Positions 2,315 to 62,879 of a stretch of DNA of 64,000 nucleotides are shown here, piece after piece; the first letter of the stretch is position 1; each line of letters begins with the position of its first letter. Where the stretch lies: NCBI GenBank assembly GCA_031288535.1, contig JAITRF010000060.1, forward strand, positions 13,519-77,518, written 5' to 3'. This DNA is from Desulfovibrio sp. GTDB lineage: Bacteria > Desulfobacterota > Desulfovibrionia > Desulfovibrionales > Desulfovibrionaceae. Both the position numbers and the translations under genes were made by a program. A model generated the notes under the pieces. The model had not been told where the DNA came from. It ran no database searches and worked only from the letters and a program-made list of their open reading frames with translations.

Positions 2315-3510
2315 GCGCCCATGCCCGCGCGCAGGCCGTCCAGGGTTTTCTGGCAGCACCCCAGCATATACGCGCACTGGTCGTCCCCAAGGTTATGCTG
2401 GAAGGGGAAAGAAATCATGTGATCGTAAAAATCGTCCGCATTGGGGCAGGCGGCCTGCCCGAGACCCAGTTTTTGGTAAAAGGGATAACGGTTGAGCGGA
2501 TAATACTGCACCACACATTTGATGCCGAATTCGCCGAACATGCGGCGAATGAAGGCGTCGCGAAGGTTTGCCGGACCGTCAAGGCGGGCTGCCAGCAGGT
2601 GATAATTGTGGCGCGGGCTGTCTTCGCGGTGAAATTCCAGTTCCGGGTAGCCGGAGAGGGCGTCGATAAAACCTATGGCGCGGGTGCGTTTCTGGGCGTT
2701 GATTTCCATTACGCGCTCCAGCATCTTGATGCCGAGGGCGCATTCAACCTCGCCCAGACAGTAGTTGGCCGGCCAGATGCGCCTGCCTTCAAGCTCCGGG
2801 AAATCCAAATCGCCCATGGCCGGACGCCAGTAGTCCTCCCGATCTTCCGGATAGGCGCAGTGCCCGTTGTGACGCAGCATGGGGACGATTGCGGCGCGTT
2901 TTTCATCCTTGACCGTAAGCATGCCACCTTCGCCCAAGGTTGTGAGATTTTTGTGCGAATGAAAGGAAAATACGCCGAAATCGGCGAAGTTGCCGGCCTT
3001 TTCCCCCTCAAGTTCCGCCCCGATGGCCTGGCAGGCGTCTTCTACCACCAGCAGTCCGCGTTTTTCCGCCAGTTCCATGATCGGGGGCATGTCCGCTACG
3101 AAACCGTAGAGGTGCGGGACGACAATCGCCCTGGTGCGGGGGGTGAGCAGGGGTTCGATGTATTTGGCCGCTGTCACCCGCGTTTTCGGGTCTATGTCCG
3201 AGAATACGAGTTTGGCGCCCCGCGCGGCAAAAGGATAGGCGGAGGATGTGAAGGTGTGGGACGGAATAACTACCTCGTCTCCGGCCTGGAAAAGACAAAG
3301 GTCCGCAGTCATTTGCAGGGCGGCTGTGCCGTTCATGCAGGCAAAGGCATGGACCGCCCCGTTGAAGGCGCGGAATTTTTCCTGGAATGCCGCCTGGTAG
3401 CGCCCTTGGGTCAAGGGATCGGCGTTGCGCATGGCCTCGACGACCGTCGCTATTTCCTCTTCGCTGTAATCAAGAGAGCGGCCGCTGAAATTTACCTTGA
3501 GGTCCATCAT
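2311..3510 (-). CDS. DegT/DnrJ/EryC1/StrS-family PLP-dependent sugar aminotransferase
   Basis: ORF 2311..3546; probable start MMDLKV at 3510. Motifs NGTAALQ, DEVVIPSHTFTSS and FSFHSHKNLTTLGEGGML (PLP lysine region). Confidence 0.85.
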   Translation of the reverse strand: MMDLKVNFSGRSLDYSEEEIATVVEAMRNADPLTQGRYQAAFQEKFRAFNGAVHAFACMNGTAALQMTADLCLFQAGDEVVIPSHTFTSSAYPFAARGAKLVFSDIDPKTRVTAAKYIEPLLTPRTRAIVVPHLYGFVADMPPIMELAEKRGLLVVEDACQAIGAELEGEKAGNFADFGVFSFHSHKNLTTLGEGGMLTVKDEKRAAIVPMLRHNGHCAYPEDREDYWRPAMGDLDFPELEGRRIWPANYCLGEVECALGIKMLERVMEINAQKRTRAIGFIDALSGYPELEFHREDSPRHNYHLLAARLDGPANLRDAFIRRMFGEFGIKCVVQYYPLNRYPFYQKLGLGQAACPNADDFYDHMISFPFQHNLGDDQCAYMLGCCQKTLDGLRAGMGA

Positions 3511-3561: not shown

Positions 3562-4647
3562 TCACATGGCTTTGAAAAGAGACGTCAGCCTCTCCCGGTT
3601 CAGGATCGTCCTGAATTCCGGTCCAAGGGCGTTGGCCAGTGGTTTTTCATGGATTATCGAACCTTGGTACAGGGCCTCGTACTGCTCCTCCGTAAGATCC
3701 CGGCAGATCCCGGACGGAAGGGTGATTCTGTTTTTCTCCAGCATTTTCATAAAAAGGGAGTGCTCTGTCGGATAGATGTCGGAAAGCACGGACAGTGCGT
3801 AGCAGTTCGCCCTGCCATGCGGCAGATGCAGGACTATGGAGAGGCCGGCGGAAATGGGGTGGACCGCGCCGGTGTTTCCGGCAGCCATGCCTCCCAGATA
3901 CGAGGCTACCATCATGTTTTCCAGGTTTCGTTCCTCCATCATGTCTCCGGAGCCGAGGAAGATGTCCGTGCAGACGGCGACGGCCGCAGCGGAAAGACGA
4001 TCTACTATCACATTGCGGTAGCTGCCGCGTTGAGATTCAAAACAGTGCATGAAGGTGTCGAGGCCGGTGAAAAAAAACTGTTCCCTGGGCACGGTGCGCG
4101 TCAGGGCCGGGTCCAGAACAAGCTGGTCGTATACGGTGAAATCGCTGTTCATGCCGAGTTTGAGCCTGCGCCGCATATTGGTCAGCACACAGGTGCGCGA
4201 ACATTCCGCCCCGGTTCCGGACAGGGTAGGCACCCCTATCTTGTAAACCGCGGGATTTTTAACCAGATCCCAGCCCTGGTAGTCCTCGGCCTTTCCGGGA
4301 TTGCTCAGGAGATTGGCCACGGCCTTGGCCGCGTCCAACACGCTTCCTCCCCCGATGCCCGTGATGCAGCACGGCACGCGGGTTCCCAGTTCTTCCTTCA
4401 GCGAGTCTGCCAAAGCGTCGATATACTCGACGGTCGGCTCGCTTGACGTGTCCACAAAAATCAGCTTGTCGCGTTTTTTGAGGGGAAGGGGCAGAACAGC
4501 GGCGTCCCTGAAAAAATGGTCGACATAAAAGACCGCCGGGGCGTCGGCAGGATCGCGCCGGGCGTCGATTAACGCCCCGAGCTGGCCGAAGGCGCCGAAG
4601 CCGAGCAGGTAATAAGGCACATTTTTGGTATTGCGGGTGACGGACAT
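3562..4647 (-). CDS. Iron-containing (class III) alcohol dehydrogenase / DHQS-like oxidoreductase
   Basis: ORF 3562..4665. The ATG at 4647 has AAGGGA upstream. GIGGGSVLDAAKAV and PTLSGTGAE are typical Fe-ADH-family motifs. Confidence 0.8.
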   Translation of the reverse strand: MSVTRNTKNVPYYLLGFGAFGQLGALIDARRDPADAPAVFYVDHFFRDAAVLPLPLKKRDKLIFVDTSSEPTVEYIDALADSLKEELGTRVPCCITGIGGGSVLDAAKAVANLLSNPGKAEDYQGWDLVKNPAVYKIGVPTLSGTGAECSRTCVLTNMRRRLKLGMNSDFTVYDQLVLDPALTRTVPREQFFFTGLDTFMHCFESQRGSYRNVIVDRLSAAAVAVCTDIFLGSGDMMEERNLENMMVASYLGGMAAGNTGAVHPISAGLSIVLHLPHGRANCYALSVLSDIYPTEHSLFMKMLEKNRITLPSGICRDLTEEQYEALYQGSIIHEKPLANALGPEFRTILNRERLTSLFKAM

Positions 4648-4845: not shown

Positions 4846-4972
4846 CAGAGCATTTTACGCTTGAAATGCTTGATTAACGGCGAGCGAAGCTCGCCTGCAA
4901 GAATTTCGCGGCAAGGATTTGCGAACAAATCCTTGCAGAGCAGCTCAACTTTTCAAAGTTGAACTGCTCTAG
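4846..4972 (-). repeat. Full copy of the tri-palindromic ~120-bp intergenic repeat (reverse orientation)
   Basis: The reverse complement aligns along its whole length with the copies at 21378, 52228 and 62758: ctagagcagttcaactttgaaaagttgagctgctc / gcaaggatttg..caaatccttgc / gaaattcttgcaggcgagcttcgctcgcc..caagcatttc / aagcgtaaaatgctc. Confidence 0.95.
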
Positions 4973-6215: not shown

Positions 6216-6311
6216 CTAGGGCAGTTTACGTCTGAGATTGTCGCTTAACTGCCAGGCAAGTTTGCCTTGCGACAATCCCGCGGCAAGGATTTGCAGGCAA
6301 ATCCTTGCCGC
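6216..6311 (-). repeat. Partial copy of the intergenic repeat (tail + hairpin 3 variant + hairpin 2; hairpin 1 missing)
   Basis: ctagggcagtttacgtctgagattgtcgc..gcgacaatc..gcggcaaggatttgcaggcaaatccttgccgc. The tail and hairpin 2 are homologous to full copies. Hairpin 3 has a different but still self-complementary stem. Confidence 0.85.
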
Positions 6312-6384
6312 TCGGTTTATATATTTTCAATGTTAAACCACTCTGATACGCTATTCTGTATACATTTTCAGGTGTTACAGCGTA

Positions 6385-12798: not shown

Positions 12799-13086
12799 AT
12801 GTAGCCAAACTGGAATCCCTGGCACGGCTGCCGAAAATTCAGCCTCGGCTACCTGAACTGCTATGTCTGCCGCCTGGATGCAAAATTCGGGCGTGACCCT
12901 TCGATCTTTTCCCTGACCGACTCCTGCCTTTTGCCACTCGCCACGTACCGGGGCGGCAAAAACAAGGGCGAGTTCAGGTTGAAGCCTGATGGCAGCTATG
13001 TTTACACTTGTTTTTCCTCCGAATGTTCTCACGAAACTATCCTGCCTTGCAGAGCAGTCCAACTTTTCAAAGTTGAAATGCTATAA
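12799..13086 (+). pseudogene. N-terminal fragment of a phage Gp37/Gp68 (DUF5131)-like gene, with a stop at codon 2, truncated by a repeat copy
   Basis: My own translation: ATG TAG then PNWNPWHGCRKFSLGYLNCYVCRLDAKFGRDPS...SYVYTCFSSECSHE. This resembles the WNPW.GC.k.S.GC.nCYa N-terminus of DUF5131 proteins. The frame runs into hairpin 1 of the repeat and stops at TAA 13084. Confidence 0.45.
13045..13086 (-). repeat. Partial copy of the intergenic repeat (end of hairpin 2 + hairpin 1)
   Basis: ccttgcagagcagtccaacttttcaaagttgaaatgctataa matches the hairpin-1 end of copy 4846..4972. Confidence 0.8.
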
Positions 13087-19338: not shown

Positions 19339-19983
19339 TCAACAGTCAGGGAAATCCTCGCCAGGCGGCAGACGCTCCCAAATAATCCTGCCCCGGCTTT
19401 TTTTGAACTTGCGCAGCAGCACATACACCGCTCCCGCCCCGCCGTCTTTGGCCTGGGCCGTGCAAAAAGCCAGCACGACGCGCTTGAACGGCACGCGGCA
19501 CAGCCATTGCCGAAGCATGGGACGCAATACGCCCAGGCCTTCCGGAGAATTTCTGCCTCGGCCGGTGATTACCGTCACACAACGTTGGTTTTTCACATAA
19601 GCCTGTCTGATGAAACGGAGCAGTGCATCGTAAGCCTGCCTCGCGTTCATGCCGTGCAGGTCGATATGCCCTTCCTGGCTGTAAGTGCCCGCGCGCAGGC
19701 GGCTGAGTATGCAGGGGTCCAGATCTAGTACCGAGCCTTCAAAATATTCACCGCTGTGCAAAAAGGCGAATTTGGCGTTGTCCTCCAACAGTTCGTACGG
19801 GCTTTTTTCCGGAATGGGCCGTGGCGCACGAGGCAAAGGCAAAGAAGGAGGGGTGACGCTCCGGCCTTTGCCGCCTACGGGCTTCACGTCTTTGGTCGCG
19901 TCCGCGAAAAGGTTTTTATCTTCCGGCGTCAGCATGTTTATCCGCAACCGCGATGCTTGGCGTATTTCAGAGCGGAGCGACAT
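19339..19983 (-). CDS. Smr-domain protein (MutS2 C-terminal-like endonuclease domain)
   Basis: IDLHGMNARQAYDALLRFIRQA...VTVITGRGRNS is an Smr domain signature. Confidence 0.8.
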   Translation of the reverse strand: MSLRSEIRQASRLRINMLTPEDKNLFADATKDVKPVGGKGRSVTPPSLPLPRAPRPIPEKSPYELLEDNAKFAFLHSGEYFEGSVLDLDPCILSRLRAGTYSQEGHIDLHGMNARQAYDALLRFIRQAYVKNQRCVTVITGRGRNSPEGLGVLRPMLRQWLCRVPFKRVVLAFCTAQAKDGGAGAVYVLLRKFKKSRGRIIWERLPPGEDFPDC

Positions 19984-19984
19984 T

Positions 19985-20094
19985 GAGAATGTTCATCCGC
20001 TCTGCACGGATTTACCTGCAAATCCTTGTCGCAAGATTGCCGCAAGCGGGCTTTGCCCGCCATTAAGCGGCAACATCAAGCGCAAAATGGTTTA
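19985..20094 (+). repeat. Near-complete, diverged copy of the intergenic repeat, filling the whole hypB-smr spacer
   Basis: ..ccgctctgcacggatttacctgcaaatccttgtcgcaagattgccgcaagcgggctttgcccgccattaagcggcaacatcaagcgcaaaatggttta. The final TTA is the complement of the hypB TAA stop. Confidence 0.85.
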
Positions 20095-21136: not shown

Positions 21137-21377
21137 CGCTTTCAGGATATGCCAAAAGCGACCTTATGCCAAGAAGCGCGCTTGTGGGTTTTCCGGCAGG
21201 CTCAATTCGTCAGGCAGGGGAAGCTCCGGGTTCTGAAGGTATAAATTCAATGCGCAATCTGGAGTGGGTCGCTTCCGCCGCTTTTTTGAGAGTGGATACG
21301 GATGGAGTATATGTGGAAGATTCCAGTTGGGTGGTAGCTGATTGCGTAGTACTCAATTTTTCAACCAGTTCCTCAAG

Positions 21378-21498
21378 TAGTTCAACTTCGAAAAGTTGTC
21401 CTGCTCTGCAAGGATTTGCTTGCAAATCCTTGCCGCGAAATGCTTGTAGGCGGGCTTGCCCGCCGTCAAGCAAGCATTTCAAGCGTAAAATGCTCTAG
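21378..21498 (+). repeat. Full copy of the tri-palindromic intergenic repeat
   Basis: tagttcaacttcgaaaagttgtcctgctc / tgcaaggatttgcttgcaaatccttgc / cgcgaaatgcttgtaggcgggcttgcccgccgtcaagcaagcatttc / aagcgtaaaatgctctag. Confidence 0.95.
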
Positions 21499-45964: not shown

Positions 45965-46064
45965 GATACATATCTACGTACGTCGCCAAAAGCGGCGTAA
46001 CTTGTCGAAAAACCACGTTTTTTCTGTGCGATTTTATCGTTTCCCAAGCCTTGTGGAGGCAATA

Positions 46065-46082
46065 TCAAGCCCAAAATGCTAT
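46065..46082 (+). repeat. Tail-only fragment of the intergenic repeat, overlapping the stop of the radical SAM gene
   Basis: atcaagcccaaaatgcta compared with the consensus ttcaagcgtaaaatgctcta. The upstream ggaggcaatatc also occurs in copy 53849..53935. Confidence 0.45.
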
Positions 46083-47209
46083 AAGGCGCGCATCCACTCC
46101 TTACGCAGGGAGATTCTGCCGTCCAGGGCGGCGTTTATGCGTTGCAGAGTTTTTTCCCTGTCCTCCGGCAAGTGTGCCCGGATGGTCAGATAATTGCTGG
46201 CGTGGTTGGCCATGAACCAACCGCCGCTGAGTCTGGTGTTCGCGAACATCAGACCGAGTTCCTGAACGAAATCCAGTCCTTCGGGCAAAACCAGCTCTCC
46301 GCTTCGCACCCGTTCGTAAATCGGGGCATCTTCCGAAAGCATCAGGGAGAGGGCGCCGACGTATTCAGGGTCTATGGCGCTCAGCACCCGCCCGGTTTCA
46401 ATGGCGTGCTCCCGGCTTTTGTCCATCCCGGCGAGGCCGAGAATCACCGTCACCGACAAGGCGAACCCGGCTTTTTTCAGCCTCAGCGCCTGCTCGACAA
46501 GCTTTTCCGGGGTGGAACCTTTTTTTATATCTTTAAGCACCTCAGGATGTCCGCTCTCGATCCCGTAATAGATCAGCGACAGGCCCATTTCGCGCAGGCG
46601 CCTGAGGTCCTCGTCGCTCTTAAGTGCCACGCCCTTGGCGTTGCCGTAAGTGGAGACGCGTTCCACCCAGGGCAGGCGTTCGGATATGTTGGAAAGCAGC
46701 CATTCCCAATGGCGCATCGGCATTATCAGGGCGTCCCCGTCCATGACGAAAAGCCGCGTTTGTCCGCGACAGTATTTTTCCGCAAACTTCAGGTCTTTTT
46801 CCCAGATGTTCCTGTCCTTGATGGCAAAACGCTTTTCCTTGAAAGCGCTGCAAAAGGAGCACTTATTGTGCGAACAGCCCAGGGTGGCCTGAAACAGGAT
46901 GCTGTAGGCCTCGCTGGGCGGACGAAAACAAAAGCCCTGATGGTCCAGACCTTCACATTCAAAAAACACGCCCGACTCCTTTGATAATACCGGTTTGCCT
47001 GCAAAGCGGGCTTGAAGCTTTACGCCTGATTTCGCAAAAACGCCGGCGGCAGGAAGCCCGCCGTCAGGTTGCCTCGGGTTATATACTTGTTGTAAGGCAA
47101 CTTGGTATAAGTTCAGATAGTAAACATCGGGCGTCGTTTGTCCAGAGGGAGTGAAACAAATTGCCGGGGGCTTGCCAAAAGAGCGGCTTCGTGCCACAAG
47201 GTTGCGCAC
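46079..47209 (-). CDS. Radical SAM domain protein of unknown specificity
   Basis: CSHNKCSFC (CxxxCxxC) cluster motif, followed by an Elp3/HemN-like TIM-barrel pattern (YYGIESG). Confidence 0.8.
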   Translation of the reverse strand: MRNLVARSRSFGKPPAICFTPSGQTTPDVYYLNLYQVALQQVYNPRQPDGGLPAAGVFAKSGVKLQARFAGKPVLSKESGVFFECEGLDHQGFCFRPPSEAYSILFQATLGCSHNKCSFCSAFKEKRFAIKDRNIWEKDLKFAEKYCRGQTRLFVMDGDALIMPMRHWEWLLSNISERLPWVERVSTYGNAKGVALKSDEDLRRLREMGLSLIYYGIESGHPEVLKDIKKGSTPEKLVEQALRLKKAGFALSVTVILGLAGMDKSREHAIETGRVLSAIDPEYVGALSLMLSEDAPIYERVRSGELVLPEGLDFVQELGLMFANTRLSGGWFMANHASNYLTIRAHLPEDREKTLQRINAALDGRISLRKEWMRAL

Positions 47210-50558: not shown

Positions 50559-51226
50559 GCATGCCTTCCTCTTTGCCGACCCGGCCGATCAACATCCTTT
50601 ACCGTCTCTGGTGCTCAAGTCTGCGCATCGTGCAAACCGGGCGCGAAATGCTTGACGGTTTCGACGCGCAAGACAGGATAATGTTGTTCGCCCTTTTCCA
50701 TGACGAGCTTTTTTCCCTGATGCACGTGCGCGAGAACCTGCGCCTGGTCACGGTGGTCAGCCGCAGCAGGGACGGTGAATATCTGGCCCGACTGCTCCAG
50801 TCCCTGGGCTTGAAAACCGCCAGGGGTTCGAGTTCCCGCCACGGAACTTCCGCCTTGCGGCAGATCGCCCGCATAATGCGCGAGGACAAGCATCACGGGG
50901 TTATTACCGTTGACGGACCGCGTGGTCCGCGTCACAAGGTCAAGCAAGGAGCGGTAATTCTCGCCTTCCGCACCCCGGCCCTGATGGTGCCGGTGCGCCT
51001 TTTCCCCAAGTGCGCGAAGAAATTCAACTCATGGGATCGGTTTCAGCTTCCTCTGCCGTTTACCCGCGTGGATATTGTTTTCGGAGAACCCTACGCGGTA
51101 CGGGCCGCTGAATTGACTGACGGGACGATCCTCGCCGAATGCCTGGAACTTGAAAGACGCCTTAAAGCTTTACGTCCTCCGCGGCTCCTTTACGCCGGGC
51201 GGAAGGAGCGCGATTGTGCTTTATAG
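50555..51226 (+). CDS. DUF374-domain protein (lysophospholipid acyltransferase-like)
   Basis: ORF 50522..51226. ATG 50555 forms an ATGA overlap with the msbA stop. SRSRDGEYLARLL..LG..T.RGSSSR.G..AL and DGPRGPRHKVK are typical of DUF374. Confidence 0.7.
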   Translation: MSMPSSLPTRPINILYRLWCSSLRIVQTGREMLDGFDAQDRIMLFALFHDELFSLMHVRENLRLVTVVSRSRDGEYLARLLQSLGLKTARGSSSRHGTSALRQIARIMREDKHHGVITVDGPRGPRHKVKQGAVILAFRTPALMVPVRLFPKCAKKFNSWDRFQLPLPFTRVDIVFGEPYAVRAAELTDGTILAECLELERRLKALRPPRLLYAGRKERDCAL

Positions 51227-52082
51227 TACGCTGAGGAAATTGCTGACGGCCGCCGGGCGGGTTCCCTGGACCGCCTTGCGCCGCCTTGCGCGCATCCTGG
51301 CCTTTTTCTTCTGGCATTTCGCCCCGTCGCGTAGAAACGAGGCGGTCAATGCAATACATAAACATCTTAAAGTATCACATGAAGAAGCTTTGCGTCTAGC
51401 CAGGCAGAGTTTTGCGGAAAATTTTCTGTCGTTTTTGGAAATCCTGCATGCGAGCCGTTTTTTCACGGAACAATCGGTACGCGTTCTTTATACCCCGGAA
51501 GTGAAAGCGATGCTTCAAGCTGAAACGAGACCGGTTATTATAGCCACCGCCCATCTGGGTTCCTGGGAATTGATGCCCGGTCTGGCCGCGGATATTCTCC
51601 CTCAACGCGAGGGCATGGTAGTCGTGCGCAGCCGCAGGAACAAGACTTTGAACCGAATTATTGCCGAACTGCGCGGGGCGCGGGGCATGCTGGTCATAGA
51701 CCATCGCAGGGCTGCGGAAATTCTGCTGCCCAAACTGCGCAATGGAGGCGTCGCGGCTTTTCTGGTGGATCACAACACGAACCGCAGGGAAGCAGTCTTT
51801 CTGCCTTTTCTTGAGGACACGGCGGCAGTGAATATGGGGCCGGCCAGCATCGCCCTGCGCGCCAAAGCGGCTGTGTATCCTGTTTTCCTGCTGCGGGACG
51901 GCAAAGGCGGACATGTCCTGCATATGCTGGCGCCTTTGCATACGGAAAATCTGGAGGGAAACGTACGGGAACGGGTCGTGAAAACAGCGCGTTTTTACAC
52001 CGAAGCTGTGGATAAAATGGTGCGCATGTATCCGGAACAATGGTTCTGGATGCACAGACGCTGGAAGACCAGAGAGGATTAG
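51216..52082 (+). CDS. Lipid A biosynthesis (Kdo2-lipid IVA) acyltransferase, LpxL/HtrB family
   Basis: ORF 51150..52082; GTG 51216 is preceded by GGAAGGAG. ATAHLGSWELMPG (HX4E/D acyltransferase motif). Confidence 0.75.
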   Translation: MLYSTLRKLLTAAGRVPWTALRRLARILAFFFWHFAPSRRNEAVNAIHKHLKVSHEEALRLARQSFAENFLSFLEILHASRFFTEQSVRVLYTPEVKAMLQAETRPVIIATAHLGSWELMPGLAADILPQREGMVVVRSRRNKTLNRIIAELRGARGMLVIDHRRAAEILLPKLRNGGVAAFLVDHNTNRREAVFLPFLEDTAAVNMGPASIALRAKAAVYPVFLLRDGKGGHVLHMLAPLHTENLEGNVRERVVKTARFYTEAVDKMVRMYPEQWFWMHRRWKTRED

Positions 52083-52107
52083 AGCAATTTCACTTTGAAA
52101 TTGCTCT
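52080..52107. repeat. Solo hairpin-1-like module of the repeat family, starting in the TAG stop of the lpxL-like gene
   Basis: TAGAGCAATTTCA-CTT-TGAAATTGCTCT has a perfect 12-bp stem. Compare hairpin 1: tagagcagttcaactttgaaaagttg..gctc. Confidence 0.75.
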
Positions 52108-52227
52108 GGCGGCCGCGCGAGCGGACGCCCGCCGCGAAGGCGCAAACGCAATTTATTTGCGCGGTTAAGCGCCGGAGCGGGCGCGGCCTGAAGATAAACC
52201 CTGTATAATCTCAAAGTTAAAGTGAAT

Positions 52228-52349
52228 TAAGCAGTTCAACTTTGAAAAGTTGGACCGCTCTGCAGGGATTTGCTTGCAATTCCTTGCCGCGAAATGCTTA
52301 CAGGCGAGCGAAGCTCGCCTGTAAGCATTTCAAGCGTAAAATGCACTAG
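52228..52349 (+). repeat. Full copy of the tri-palindromic intergenic repeat
   Basis: ttaagcagttcaactttgaaaagttggaccgctc / tgcagggatttgcttgcaattccttgc / cgcgaaatgcttacaggcgagcgaagctcgcctgtaagcatttc (perfect 19-bp stem) / aagcgtaaaatgcactag. Confidence 0.95.
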
Positions 52350-52786
52350 TCCGCATCCTCCGGCAGACAGGGACGCAACGTATAGTCGCTGATATGGCGC
52401 AGGGGGATATAGGTTTTCGCCCCGTCCGGGGCCTCGATGCAGAGGGCGTCATGGTCCGTGGCAAAGCAGGAGAGGCAGGTGAAAGACAATGTCCCTCCCG
52501 CCGTAAAATGCACGGAAACGCTCTGCAGAGAAGGAGCGGCCCTGTATCTGGCGATACTTACGGCTGTGGAAATGTTCCGGAGCAGGAGAGATCGCCAGGC
52601 GTCCTCCAAAGCGAGGCGGTTATCTTCAGTGTCGTGTTCCGGACAAAGGGCGAGCTTATGGCTGTCCCCGGCCGGAACGAACCCTTCAGTCCAGCCGGTG
52701 GAGGCGTCACGTCCGCATATCCAGCAGGGTATCATGGCCGGAGGAAGGGGGTGGTTGTTTGCGCAGGCAGCCAACGGCGTTTTCAA
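52346..52786 (-). CDS. Hypothetical Cys/His-containing protein (start uncertain)
   Basis: 146-aa ORF (TTG 52786 or ATG 52735) overlapping the purQ 3' end by 29-80 nt. Contains CWICG...CPEH. I recognise no family. Its TAG stop lies inside the repeat terminus. Confidence 0.45.
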   Translation of the reverse strand: MKTPLAACANNHPLPPAMIPCWICGRDASTGWTEGFVPAGDSHKLALCPEHDTEDNRLALEDAWRSLLLRNISTAVSIARYRAAPSLQSVSVHFTAGGTLSFTCLSCFATDHDALCIEAPDGAKTYIPLRHISDYTLRPCLPEDAD

Positions 52787-53848: not shown

Positions 53849-53935
53849 GAGCGGTTTAACTTTGAAAATGTACAAACCGCTCTGTGCGGCGGCGGGCGGA
53901 TTTACCCGGAAATCGTCCCGGAGGCAATATCTAAT
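53849..53935 (+). repeat. Degenerate copy of the intergenic repeat
   Basis: gagcggtttaactttgaaaatgtacaaaccgctctg (hairpin 1-like), then ggatttacccggaaatcgtcc (hairpin 2-like), then ggaggcaatatcta. Confidence 0.5.
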
Positions 53936-59461: not shown

Positions 59462-59594
59462 ATTTCTCCTCTGTCTCCTCTTGCGGCGCGCGCTTGGAGC
59501 GACCGGGCGCGGCGAACGGCGACCTGCTTGCGGCGGGCGCGCCTCAACGCCTTTCCCGTGCCTTTCTGAAAAAGCCGTTTTTGAAACGTGCTTC

Positions 59595-59630
59595 GCCGTC
59601 AGGCGACAATCTCAAGCGTAAAATGCTCTA
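59595..59630 (+). repeat. Partial copy of the intergenic repeat (3' arm of hairpin 3 + tail), overlapping the rapZ stop
   Basis: gccgtcaggcgacaatctcaagcgtaaaatgctcta. The final CTA is the complement of the rapZ TAG. Confidence 0.8.
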
Positions 59631-61162: not shown

Positions 61163-62587
61163 TCAAAAAAACATTCTTCGCTTGGATGAGGAAGGTATTC
61201 CCAGGGCTGTGCGATACTTAGCAACCGTTCGCCGCGCGATGCTGACCTTGAGTTCTTCCTTGAGAAGTTCGCCGATATATTCGTCACTCATCGGCGCTTT
61301 TGGGTCTTCTGCGGCAATGTATCGTTTAATCAACGATTTTACGCTTTCGGAACCGACTTCCGTGCCGTCGTCCAGAGACAGCGAACTGTTGAAGAAAAAC
61401 TTCAACTCAAAGGTTCCGTACGGCGTGGCCGCGTATTTATTGGAAGTTATGCGGCTGATTGTGGATTCGTGCATATTTATGTCATCCGCGATATCTTTGA
61501 GAATCAAGGGCTTGAGACAGGAAATACCGTTCAGGAAAAAGTCTTTCTGGAAACGGACGATGCTTTCCATAACCTTGTAGAGCGTGCGCTGCCTTTGGAA
61601 GAGACTCTTGATCAACCATTCAGCCGCATGTTTTTTTTCCTGATAATATTCCCTGTCGGCGATGCTGGCCGTTTTAATACTGTCCGGGTAAAGCGAGGAC
61701 AACTGAAGCCGGGGAAGCCCGTCCTCGTTGAGTACGATGATGAAGTCGTCGTCCATGCGGTATACATAGACATCGGGAGAAATATAGGTCGGTTCGCTGC
61801 CGCCGAAGCTGGCGCCTGGCATGGGATCGAGCCCCTGGATTATGTCCAGGTATTCTTTCAAATCTTCAAGCGTCAGTTTAAATTTGCGCAAAATAGTTTT
61901 ATAGCGCTTTGCTTCCAGGTCTTCCAAGTGTTCGGTCACCAGTGACACCAAGACTGGATCCCGGTCATAGTGCAAATTTTCAAGCTGGATGAGCAGACAT
62001 TCCTGCGGGGTTCGCGCGGCCACTCCCACCGGGTCGAAACGCTGAACTGCGGCCAGGACTTTTTCGGTTTTCTCGACAGTAGCTCCGGCCAGGGCGGCCA
62101 AATCCTGGATCGAGGCCTGCAGATAGCCGGAAGAACTCAAGTTTCCTATGATTGCTTCGCCGATGTTCATTTCTTCGTCCGTAAGGCGGGAGAAGCGCAA
62201 CTGCCAGGCGAGATGTCCCTCAAGGGTCCGCGTCCCCGCATAGCGGGCCTCGAAATTGGCCCCGTCTTCCAGGCTTTCCATCTCATGCCGCGACGACTGC
62301 CTTGAGGTGCTGGAAAAATCGCCCAGATAATCCTCCCAGTCCGCGTTGCGGGCGACTTCCGCGCTATAGGCGTCCTTGTCGTCCTCGCCGCCGGGTCGCT
62401 TTTCCTCAGCGGGCTGGACGTTTTCCTCAATCACTTCCTCAAGAAAAGGGTTTTCCAGAAGTTCACTTTGCACCGTTTCCACCAGTTCCAGGCGTGAAAG
62501 CTGCAATAGCCGGATAGCCTGCTGCAACTGCGGCGTCATAATGATCTGTTGAGTCAGTTTCAATTGTTGGCGTAGTCCGAGATCCAT
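61163..62587 (-). CDS. rpoN: RNA polymerase sigma-54 factor
   Basis: N-terminal LxLxQQL region I and C-terminal RpoN box ARRTVAKYR. Confidence 0.95.
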   Translation of the reverse strand: MDLGLRQQLKLTQQIIMTPQLQQAIRLLQLSRLELVETVQSELLENPFLEEVIEENVQPAEEKRPGGEDDKDAYSAEVARNADWEDYLGDFSSTSRQSSRHEMESLEDGANFEARYAGTRTLEGHLAWQLRFSRLTDEEMNIGEAIIGNLSSSGYLQASIQDLAALAGATVEKTEKVLAAVQRFDPVGVAARTPQECLLIQLENLHYDRDPVLVSLVTEHLEDLEAKRYKTILRKFKLTLEDLKEYLDIIQGLDPMPGASFGGSEPTYISPDVYVYRMDDDFIIVLNEDGLPRLQLSSLYPDSIKTASIADREYYQEKKHAAEWLIKSLFQRQRTLYKVMESIVRFQKDFFLNGISCLKPLILKDIADDINMHESTISRITSNKYAATPYGTFELKFFFNSSLSLDDGTEVGSESVKSLIKRYIAAEDPKAPMSDEYIGELLKEELKVSIARRTVAKYRTALGIPSSSKRRMFF

Positions 62588-62757
62588 GCGAAATCCTTAT
62601 CTGTTTCATGCATATTGCCATAGTTTACTTTTTTATGCAAGCTTTGTGCCTTATTTGTCAAATATAATGTTTTCGCCGCTGCAAGCCATTCCGGAAGCTC
62701 TATGCAAGTGATTTTGATCAGGCGCGTTGACCGGAGACTGCGCTTTTCCGGCTCGGG

Positions 62758-62879
62758 CAAGTTCAACTTTGAAAAGTTGGACCGGTCCGCAAGGATTTAC
62801 TTGCAAATCCTTGCCCCGAAATGCTTGTAGGCAGGCTTTGCCCGCCGTTAAACAAGTATTTCAAGCGTAACTGCTCTAG
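62758..62879 (+). repeat. Full copy of the tri-palindromic intergenic repeat
   Basis: caagttcaactttgaaaagttggaccggtc / cgcaaggatttacttgcaaatccttgc / cccgaaatgcttgtaggcaggctttgcccgccgttaaacaagtatttc / aagcgtaactgctctag. The final CTA is the complement of the TAG stop of the next gene. Confidence 0.95.

Follow-up and report, generated by a model that had tools for sequence, protein, structure and literature searches.

A stretch of 64,000 nucleotides from a Desulfovibrio sp. contig (JAITRF010000060.1 of assembly GCA_031288535.1, positions 13,519 to 77,518; hereafter the window) was analysed with regard to a short, dispersed repeat whose ends fall on stop codons. Within the window, an lpxL-like lipid A acyltransferase gene (51150-52082, plus strand) and a conserved hypothetical gene (52346-52735, minus strand) converge on a spacer at 52080-52349 that consists of repeat material. 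The lpxL-like product matched Pfam PF03279 to the last profile position; the real start of the gene probably lies downstream of 51150, because database homologues have a length of 280-290 aa. The hypothetical gene encodes 129 aa (MIPCWICG…PEDAD) and is considered real because the protein is conserved in two related loci, L108 and L109. The lpxL stop is the TAG at 52080-52082, followed by AGCAATTT, at the end of a variant or degenerate repeat copy (52080-52171, minus strand; nhmmer, model positions 26-128, E = 1.2e-4). The hypothetical gene stops at CTA 52346-52348, i.e. at TAG followed by TGCATTTT, and this codon is supplied by a full copy (52222-52348, minus strand; E = 1.1e-26, match 52230-52348) with its first-hairpin terminus …AAAATGCAC-TA.

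The repeat family was defined by repeat finding, manual alignment and an nhmmer model (29 copies, 128 positions). Its members are non-coding and approx. 125 nt long (consensus 125-129 nt), carry TA at both ends and follow the outline TA-GAGCATTTTACGC…, three hairpins, …TGCTC-TA, with the consensus TAGAGCATTTTACGCTTGAAATGCTTGCTTAACGGCGGGCAAAGCCCGCCTGCAAGCATTTCGCGGCAAGGATTTGCAGGCAAATCCTTGCAGAGCAGTCCAACTTTTCAAAGTTAAACTGCTCTA. The terminus beside the first hairpin is termed H1 and the one beside the last hairpin H4. The terminal inverted repeats read TA-GAGCA(T/A)TT… and …AA(N)TGCTC-TA, and each end offers a stop in all three inward frames within ~30 nt. According to their first four bases, the H1 ends fall into the subfamilies TAGA (57 ends), TATG (14), TACA (13) and TATA (9). 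The window contains ~12 copies or fragments, which corresponds to a density of ~1 copy per 5 kb, and at least 164 non-overlapping copies were found with nhmmer in the window and about 100 listed loci (L numbers). The family is short and non-coding and has many dispersed copies at unrelated loci, terminal inverted repeats and a target-site duplication, all of which match the definition of a miniature inverted-repeat transposable element (MITE).

The outermost three bases of a copy form the stop codon not only of lpxL and the hypothetical gene, but also of rapZ, an RumA-like methyltransferase gene and hypB. The rapZ stop (CTA 59628-59630, TAG in the gene) lies inside the terminus of a 44-nt terminal fragment (59587-59630, minus strand; E = 4.8e-9). 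The RumA-like gene ends at CTA 62876-62878, which reads TAG followed by AGCAG-TTACGC and belongs to a full copy with a degenerate far end (62749-62878, minus strand; E = 3.4e-26, match 62760-62878). The TAA of hypB (Pfam cobW/HypB; TTA 20092-20094) lies at distance 0 in a diverged full copy (TAAACCATTTT; 19970-20094, minus strand; E = 1.2e-23, match 19970-20093). As for LpxL, the Pfam profiles of RapZ and RumA reach their last positions. The stop of a radical-SAM gene (CTA 46079-46081, TAG in the gene) is also located within a short terminal fragment (TATAGCATTTTGGGCTTGATATTGCC; 46047-46083, minus strand; repeat family D3, weak), although its register is shifted by 2 (TA-TAG-CATTTT). Altogether, five of the 13 model-defined termini of the window coincide exactly with a stop that closes an open frame of at least 100 codons.

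The earlier note on this DNA, made from the letters alone, had placed seven stop codons in repeat termini, among them those of both convergent genes at 52080-52349. Both of the latter were confirmed, and six of the seven do fall in a repeat terminus, that of the radical-SAM gene in the shifted register. The seventh, TAA 13084-13086 of a presumed DUF5131 fragment, was rejected as a gene stop: it closes only a 51-codon frame (12931-13086) that crosses the repeat inside-out, and the Pfam match was sub-threshold (E = 4e-4). The copy in question is a fragment with the last hairpin only (13044-13085, plus strand; E = 6.2e-5, match 13044-13084). A junction that always reads stop+AGCA(T/A)TTT was found in merely two of the seven cases (lpxL and rapZ). 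Three consecutive hairpins at the start of the 3' untranslated region (3' UTR) are present behind the hypothetical gene, the RumA-like gene and hypB, where full copies stand, but not behind rapZ and the radical-SAM gene with their short terminal fragments.

Orthologous loci provided insight into the state before insertion. In the syntenic contig of a close relative (L108; LpxL 88% identical), the spacer between lpxL and the hypothetical gene is missing. The contig reads …AGACCGGAT-CA-GTCCGCATCC…, compared with …AGAGAGGAT-TA-[263 nt]-TA-GTCCGCATCC… in the window, and the BLAST blocks of both overlap by 2 nt. The insert at lpxL is written out as GAGGAT-TA-[GAGCAATTT…263 nt…AAAATGCAC]-TA. The simplest ancestor would have been GGAT-TA-GTCC, with one TA common to a plus-strand TAG and a minus-strand TAA. 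The C-terminus of the hypothetical protein (…PEDAD) is identical in both; the stop behind it is TGA in L108 and TAG in the window. LpxL ends 12 residues earlier in the window than in L108. In the latter, lpxL and the convergent gene overlap by 40 nt (L108 10804-10843); a T-to-C difference makes the inferred TAG a CAG there and extends LpxL by these 12 residues (…TRPDQSASSGKQGRSV) into the convergent gene. L109 carries an independent insertion in the opposite orientation and one codon further on, and the terminus again supplies TAG.

A clean pair of empty and filled sites was found in two other loci. The empty site (L084, Nc350_bin8) reads …TCCGGC-TA-GCGGCG with a single TA, the filled one (L007, Kf353_bin37) …TTTCGGC-TA-[GAGCAATTTG…134 nt…AAAATGCTC]-TA-GCGGCG. 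This TA is part of a TAG that closes an open frame on the minus strand (41 codons, truncated by the locus edge). The 138-nt filled stretch (L007 7739-7876; two TAs and the 134-nt insert) is of a related second-repeat type, described further below, and has the ends TAGAGCA…TGCTCTA in common with the element.

At further genes, the position of the stop codon could be compared. In L104 and L108, RapZ terminates after …HRHLELG at the codon used in the window, and the TAG is followed by unrelated sequence. The RapZ of L102 (91% identical) also ends with …HRHLELG at this codon, with TAA as stop. L102 was discarded as an empty site, as the same terminus, in decayed form, comes after its TAA: approx. 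40 nt after the TAA (L102 1125-1170) resemble a decayed first terminus (GACAGATGACGCCTGCGATATGC…TGACGGC). Judged by this resemblance, the insertion at the rapZ stop may predate the split of the window and L102 lineages. For the radical-SAM gene, L108 has TAA at the codon where the window has TAG, and the homology between the two stops there. Beyond this breakpoint, L108 (4830-5050) contains a solo palindrome and a tRNA-like gene (recognised by eye) and the window the truncated element fragment, which suggests a rearrangement or deletion at element copies.

The RumA-like gene behaved differently. The element at 62749-62878 is absent from L110, L111 and L104. In the closest relatives, L110 and L111, the protein ends with …FEKR at a TAG of its own, two codons upstream of the window stop. 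In the window, this old TAG is gone, two codons (RH) are added and the element TAG serves as stop; in L110, the counterpart of the insertion point is a TA located 13 nt downstream of the stop. L104 has its stop at the same codon as the window, but was too diverged (75%) to be used for reconstruction of the target. The RumA-like gene of the window is a case of stop capture.

The target site was deduced from the flanks of the copies. TA was present at 94 of 112 left ends and 107 of 120 right ends. In the 62 copies that retain both ends intact, the left TA was preceded by T in 32, C in 23, A in 6 and G in 1 (pyrimidine, Y, in 55/62), and the base after the right TA was A in 31, G in 26, T in 4 and C in 1 (purine, R, in 57/62). 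The reconstructed targets TTAA (17), TTAG (13), CTAA (11) and CTAG (9) add up to YTAR in 50 of the 62 copies, and the same preference was seen away from stops. Only TA is duplicated; the inner G on the left and the inner C on the right are fixed and represent bases of the inverted repeat. The symmetry of the target argues for a double-strand insertion of the DDE type and against an IS200/IS605-like mechanism.

To quantify the coincidence, 228 intact termini from the window and the listed loci were considered, and for each the distance was recorded between its outer TA and the stop of the open frame (at least 100 codons) that reads into the element. A single spike was observed at distance 0, with 18 of 124 H1 ends and 27 of 104 H4 ends. 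The other offsets comprised one or two ends each, except for the stops within the element at +16 and +29 (H1) and +10 (H4). The 45 ends at offset 0 compare with 27 at all in-element stops together. Many open reading frames (ORFs) ending at in-element stops had no Pfam match and the look of antisense shadows and were not counted as genes; GC content at codon positions did not separate real from shadow ORFs. The coincidence of termini and stops is far beyond chance.

It also depends on the terminus. Termini that form TAG were located on stops of long ORFs in 17 of 62 cases for H1 and 26 of 85 for H4 (27% and 31%, respectively), compared with none of the 39 H1 ends that begin with TAT or TAC. Where the H1 end of an element was not of the TAG type, its TAG-type H4 end reached a stop in 10 of 30 cases. 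Given 0/39 versus 10/30, contact with a stop therefore depends on a terminus that is able to rebuild a stop. Such a dependence is a prediction of selection against insertions that destroy stops, and ends that cannot form a stop and never touch one are a clean illustration of how selection filters transposon insertions.

The extent of the enrichment varied with the null model. The TAs of TAA and TAG stops constitute 8.0% of the permissible (non-coding) TA sites and 16.6% of the permissible YTAR sites. Of the 78 two-ended elements, 20 (25.6%) are in contact with a called stop, which is a ~3-fold excess over the uniform-TA null (p = 2.4e-6) and a ~1.5-fold excess over the YTAR null (p = 0.027), both models being approximate as the gene calls were crude (greedy longest ORF). 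Target preference and purifying selection largely account for the enrichment, and a special attraction to stops is not needed. The residual factor of ~1.5 could stem from errors in gene calling, from stop capture as in the RumA-like gene or from weak positive selection. In the crude gene calls of all loci, TGA was used 301 times, TAA 179 times and TAG 156 times. Element termini supply part of the TAG count, and the share of TAG in these genomes may be measurably raised by the family.

On either strand, a full copy folds into three hairpins, with about -60 kcal/mol and z about -9. The copy at 52222-52348 reached -60 kcal/mol (z = -8.9), and a 29-nt palindrome at 52080-52108 formed a hairpin of -15.8 kcal/mol (z = -6.2). 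The long second hairpin and the third one are kept via compensatory changes between subfamilies (45 copies): paired cells amounted to 95.5%, compared with 86% in shuffles and 34-44% when the partners were slid, and 10 pairs were changed on both sides. These changes are few events at the level of subfamilies, not many independent ones. The structure termed hairpin 1 in the earlier note exists in one subfamily only. No intrinsic terminator-like site was detected around 52080-52349 (51800-52600), where the hairpins have no T runs. The conservation of the hairpins could serve either transposition or a role in RNA.

Taken together, the element is most probably a MITE that inserts at TA and whose terminal G rebuilds TAG within TAA and TAG stops; we assign this reading a probability of about 80%. 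It would be a non-autonomous cut-and-paste transposon of ~125 nt without coding capacity that is highly abundant in a clade of uncultured Desulfovibrio. Integration would take place at TA, preferably Y-TA-R, with duplication of the TA. Due to the ends GAGCA…TGCTC, each flanking TA would then be followed by G when read inwards. TAA and TAG stops are TAR sites and would be among the few sites where an insertion leaves a gene unbroken: inserted in the TA of a stop in either orientation, the element would remake TAG at the same codon, and the protein would stay unchanged. Such insertions would be tolerated and so accumulate. As each end also closes the other two frames within ~30 nt, insertions in or just past the last codons would likewise be survivable, and the element TAG could take over once the old stop is lost. 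In the loci compared, TA is duplicated, the target is YTAR, stops keep their positions and a TAG-forming terminus is needed; a DDE transposase acting in trans would presumably move the element, and purifying selection rather than active targeting would produce the excess at stops.

This mechanism had been suggested in the earlier note, and the empty sites, the unchanged stops and the enrichment support it. Orthologues with a single dinucleotide where the filled site has TA…TA were found in two pairs (L108/window and L084/L007), and the predicted accumulation of element ends at stops was found as the spike at distance 0. The expectation that the empty site carries its stop at the same codon proved right for the hypothetical gene, RapZ and the radical-SAM gene, but not for the RumA-like protein (two residues longer in the window) and LpxL (12 residues shorter).

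Several points weigh against this interpretation. The empty allele of L108 reads CA and not TA, so that the ancestral TA must be deduced, and the insert at lpxL is a composite of two related elements totalling 263 nt. The RumA-like gene demonstrates that not every coincidence is an insertion into a stop codon, and a 1.5-fold excess over the YTAR null is left over. The terminal inverted repeats are short (about 7-9 nt). Finally, no autonomous element with matching ends was found among pairs of termini 700-3000 nt apart in 109 loci. The long ORFs bracketed by two termini were dismissed as parent insertion sequences (IS), since all of them are ordinary genes (HypD, Obg, a periplasmic binding protein, an RNase H-like protein and others). 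The only transposase seen in the loci is of the IS4 type (L046 1610-2734, minus strand; Pfam DUF4372 and DDE_Tnp_1), and it was rejected as parent as its own ends look unrelated. This gene directly adjoins an element, and the in-element stop of the last-hairpin terminus closes its frame. The examined loci showed no IS630-type gene; the label IS630/Tc1 is plausible in view of the 2-bp TA duplication, which agrees with the NTAN target of MITEs from this group, and a mobiliser of the IS5/IS427 type is possible.

The coincidence might instead arise by stop capture; that the element supplies the stop and alters the C-terminus had been offered as an alternative in the earlier note. An element would land near the end of a gene, the gene's own stop would later be lost or the spacer deleted, and the frame would run on to the element TAG or to a TGA or TAA inside the element, so that the coincidence is secondary and the C-terminus altered. 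A minority of genes fits this description, namely, the RumA-like gene, which is two codons longer than in L110 and L111 and ends at the element TAG, LpxL with its 12 residues fewer than in L108, and an M23 peptidase (L052) and an ABC ATPase (L018), both of which use the +10 stop within the last-hairpin end. The stops in all three frames at each end would also favour capture. However, RapZ, the radical-SAM gene, the hypothetical gene and the gene of the L007/L084 pair have their empty-site stop at the identical codon with the TA already there. Moreover, the ends at offset 0 (45) outnumber those at all in-element stops (27), many of which belong to spurious antisense frames. As an explanation of the family as a whole, stop capture is unlikely. 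Positive selection for a domesticated 3'-UTR module that acts as terminator, mRNA stabiliser or processing site and is kept behind stops would account for the very high stability of the folds of either strand (z about -9), for hairpins preserved by compensatory changes between subfamilies and for the residual 1.5-3-fold excess over the target-site nulls; the transcripts of bacterial MITEs are thought to influence processing and stability of adjoining mRNAs (PMC2229807). A strand-specific function in RNA would, however, predict a bias in orientation, and TAG-forming ends of both orientations are found at stops equally often (27% vs 31%). Furthermore, U-tract terminators and an Rfam family are lacking, many copies lie away from 3' ends of genes, truncated fragments of 37-44 nt without hairpins persist at the stops of rapZ and the radical-SAM gene, and conserved structure can equally serve transposition. 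Such a module is very unlikely to be the reason for the coincidence.

Transposition of single strands by a Y1/HUH enzyme (IS200/IS605-PATE or REP/RAYT) would dispense with a true duplication, as the left TA would then represent the target motif and the right one would belong to the element. The element is rich in hairpins, and one pair of empty and filled sites cannot distinguish a duplicated TA from a target TA plus an element-borne TA. Yet the flanks are symmetric (Y before the left TA in 55/62, R after the right TA in 57/62) and indicate a double-strand target that is palindromic, the ends form inverted repeats (GAGCA…TGCTC), the minimal derivatives are perfect palindromes of two ends, and no Y1 transposase was seen in any locus. 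This renders single-strand transposition extremely improbable. A MITE that inserts at TA and rebuilds TAG is preferred over these explanations. It is also doubtful that its termini have been adapted as 'translation-safe' ends (G after TA, stops in the other frames) and its hairpins co-opted as a 3'-UTR module for mRNA stabilisation, processing or termination. If this were true, hundreds of gene 3' ends would have been colonised across the Desulfovibrio clade, with a turnover of stops towards TAG and small C-terminal changes. In any case, TA duplication plus a terminal G is a simple, checkable rule for repeat ends on stops, which keeps annotators from misreading such sites as conserved regulatory motifs or gene truncations. 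The family sometimes alters the C-termini of proteins, and TAA or TGA stops become TAG.

The element is of a known kind in a new host, and no new mechanism is involved. Correia elements have known promoter, IHF-site and RNase III functions. The target consensus of the IS5 family (IS5 and IS427 groups) is YTAR, and IS5 proper duplicates all four bases. The Desulfovibrio element shares this consensus, but differs from IS5 proper in that its left Y and right R vary independently, no 4-bp direct repeat is formed and TA alone is duplicated. From REP/RAYT or IS200/IS605 elements, which insert without duplication at an asymmetric motif and go with a Y1 transposase, it is set apart by symmetric YTAR flanks and inverted-repeat ends. 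Bacterial MITEs mostly have TA termini, terminal inverted repeats and stable RNA stem-loops, and the class was first discovered as Correia repeats (PMC2229807). By description, the element is similar to MITEs of the Correia/NEMIS and ERIC type in all three features; NEMIS transcripts were proposed to take part in the processing of neighbouring transcripts (PMC2229807). RUP was tied to IS630-Spn1 because the terminal inverted repeats are similar and insertion occurs at TA-containing targets (PMC2229807). Like RUP and other MITEs derived from IS630/Tc1-mariner elements, the Desulfovibrio family belongs to the size class of about 100-130 nt and is non-coding with stops in the frames, directed to TA-containing targets and high in copy number (PMC2229807). 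The ends of RUP match the resident IS630-Spn1, whereas no matching IS was found for the Desulfovibrio element, which is unrelated in sequence and resides in Desulfovibrionaceae.

Repeats that end genes are known from other bacteria. In S. pneumoniae ATCC 700669, 36 genes have their stop codon encoded by the BOX repeat, with no strong evidence of protein truncation (PMC3049150). As described there, a repeat supplies the stops of genes, which is the same phenomenon as in Desulfovibrio. BOX is modular (boxA-B-C), unlike the present element, and the passages cited state no rule of TA duplication plus G, whereas the mechanism in Desulfovibrio can be read from empty sites. In Coxiella, each functional annotated gene that QMITE1 or QMITE2 affects has the insertion at its 3' end, the size of the protein is about unchanged and several overlaps with the last codons have only 1-3 bp (PMC5896051). 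The QMITEs differ from the Desulfovibrio element in sequence and host, and the direct repeat of QMITE2 is unique to each copy instead of a fixed TA.

The host range was examined by a scan of species-representative genomes with GCATTTTACGCTTGARATNNT, which gave at least 100 stretches, nearly all from metagenome-assembled genomes (MAGs) of Desulfovibrionaceae. At least 10 MAGs carry the family, including Kf353_bin37, Gx481_bin32, Im510_bin30, Iy174_bin55 and EPI_MAG_00186. Matches of the scan pattern in Chromatium, Sulfurimonas and Campylobacteraceae were discarded as chance, as the rest of the element is missing. The consensus had no blastn match in the plasmid collection, and the whole window had no match in Rfam 15 at gathering score. 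A limited, open-access search of the literature yielded no account of this Desulfovibrio family. It is apparently a very dense and so far undescribed MITE family of uncultured Desulfovibrio. It breaks up assemblies and marks at least one synteny breakpoint. A search of metagenome contigs with LpxL returned relatives of 29-35% identity only, which were of no use for empty sites.

The remaining copies of the window lie apart from called gene stops or are partial. A full copy at 4847-4971 (plus strand; E = 2.8e-33) with the left end CAGAGCA and the right end TGCTCTAG touches no gene stop. Another full copy, of the GAGATTGTCGC subfamily (6217-6344, plus strand; E = 1.7e-27), is also located away from gene stops, and no gene stop was called at the full copy at 21371-21497 (minus strand; E = 1.6e-29, match 21377-21497), whose first terminus is TGCTCTAG. 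The spacer between purQ and pyrG contains a partial copy with the third and fourth hairpins (53849-53917, minus strand; E = 3.5e-8).

Several related sequences accompany the family. The TATG-type subfamily has an extra segment of ~50 nt inside the second hairpin, GCATCGCTGCTGTCTTCATCCGTAAGCTGCTGCGCAGCAACGGCTGAAGCAAG (L022, L025, L032, L038, L048, L089 and others; MAG Gx481_bin32). The second repeat mentioned above, …CAATTTGATTTTGAGACGC(C/T)CC(T)TCCGGCGCTT…, often adjoins the element or is fused to it (L045 about 3900-3945, L062, L100, L063 and L092; MAG Kf353_bin37). The outer end of the copy at 52080-52171 is a perfect 29-nt palindrome, TAGAGCAATTTCACTTTGAAATTGCTCTG (52080-52108). A perfect palindrome of ~29 nt, (T/C/G)(A/G)GAGCAATTTCAnnnTGAAATTGCTC(T/C)(G/A), also stands alone (window 52080-52108, L110 3419-3447, L108 5001-5029, L041 1631-1659 and L057 7184-7212) and looks like a minimal derivative built from two element ends. 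In L110, a near-identical palindrome unit starts at the TAG of a gene ending at 3421 (Pfam YfiO/TPR) and is followed by the GC-rich sequence GGCGGCCGCG…GAGCGGAC, the same as at window position 52109.

The element at 62749-62878 lies just upstream of a block at 62632-62652 (minus strand) that is conserved in four genomes and precedes rpoN (61163-62587). The block contains GGCAC-N5-TTGCA, which matches the -24/-12 promoter consensus of sigma-54, directly upstream of the sigma-54 gene itself.

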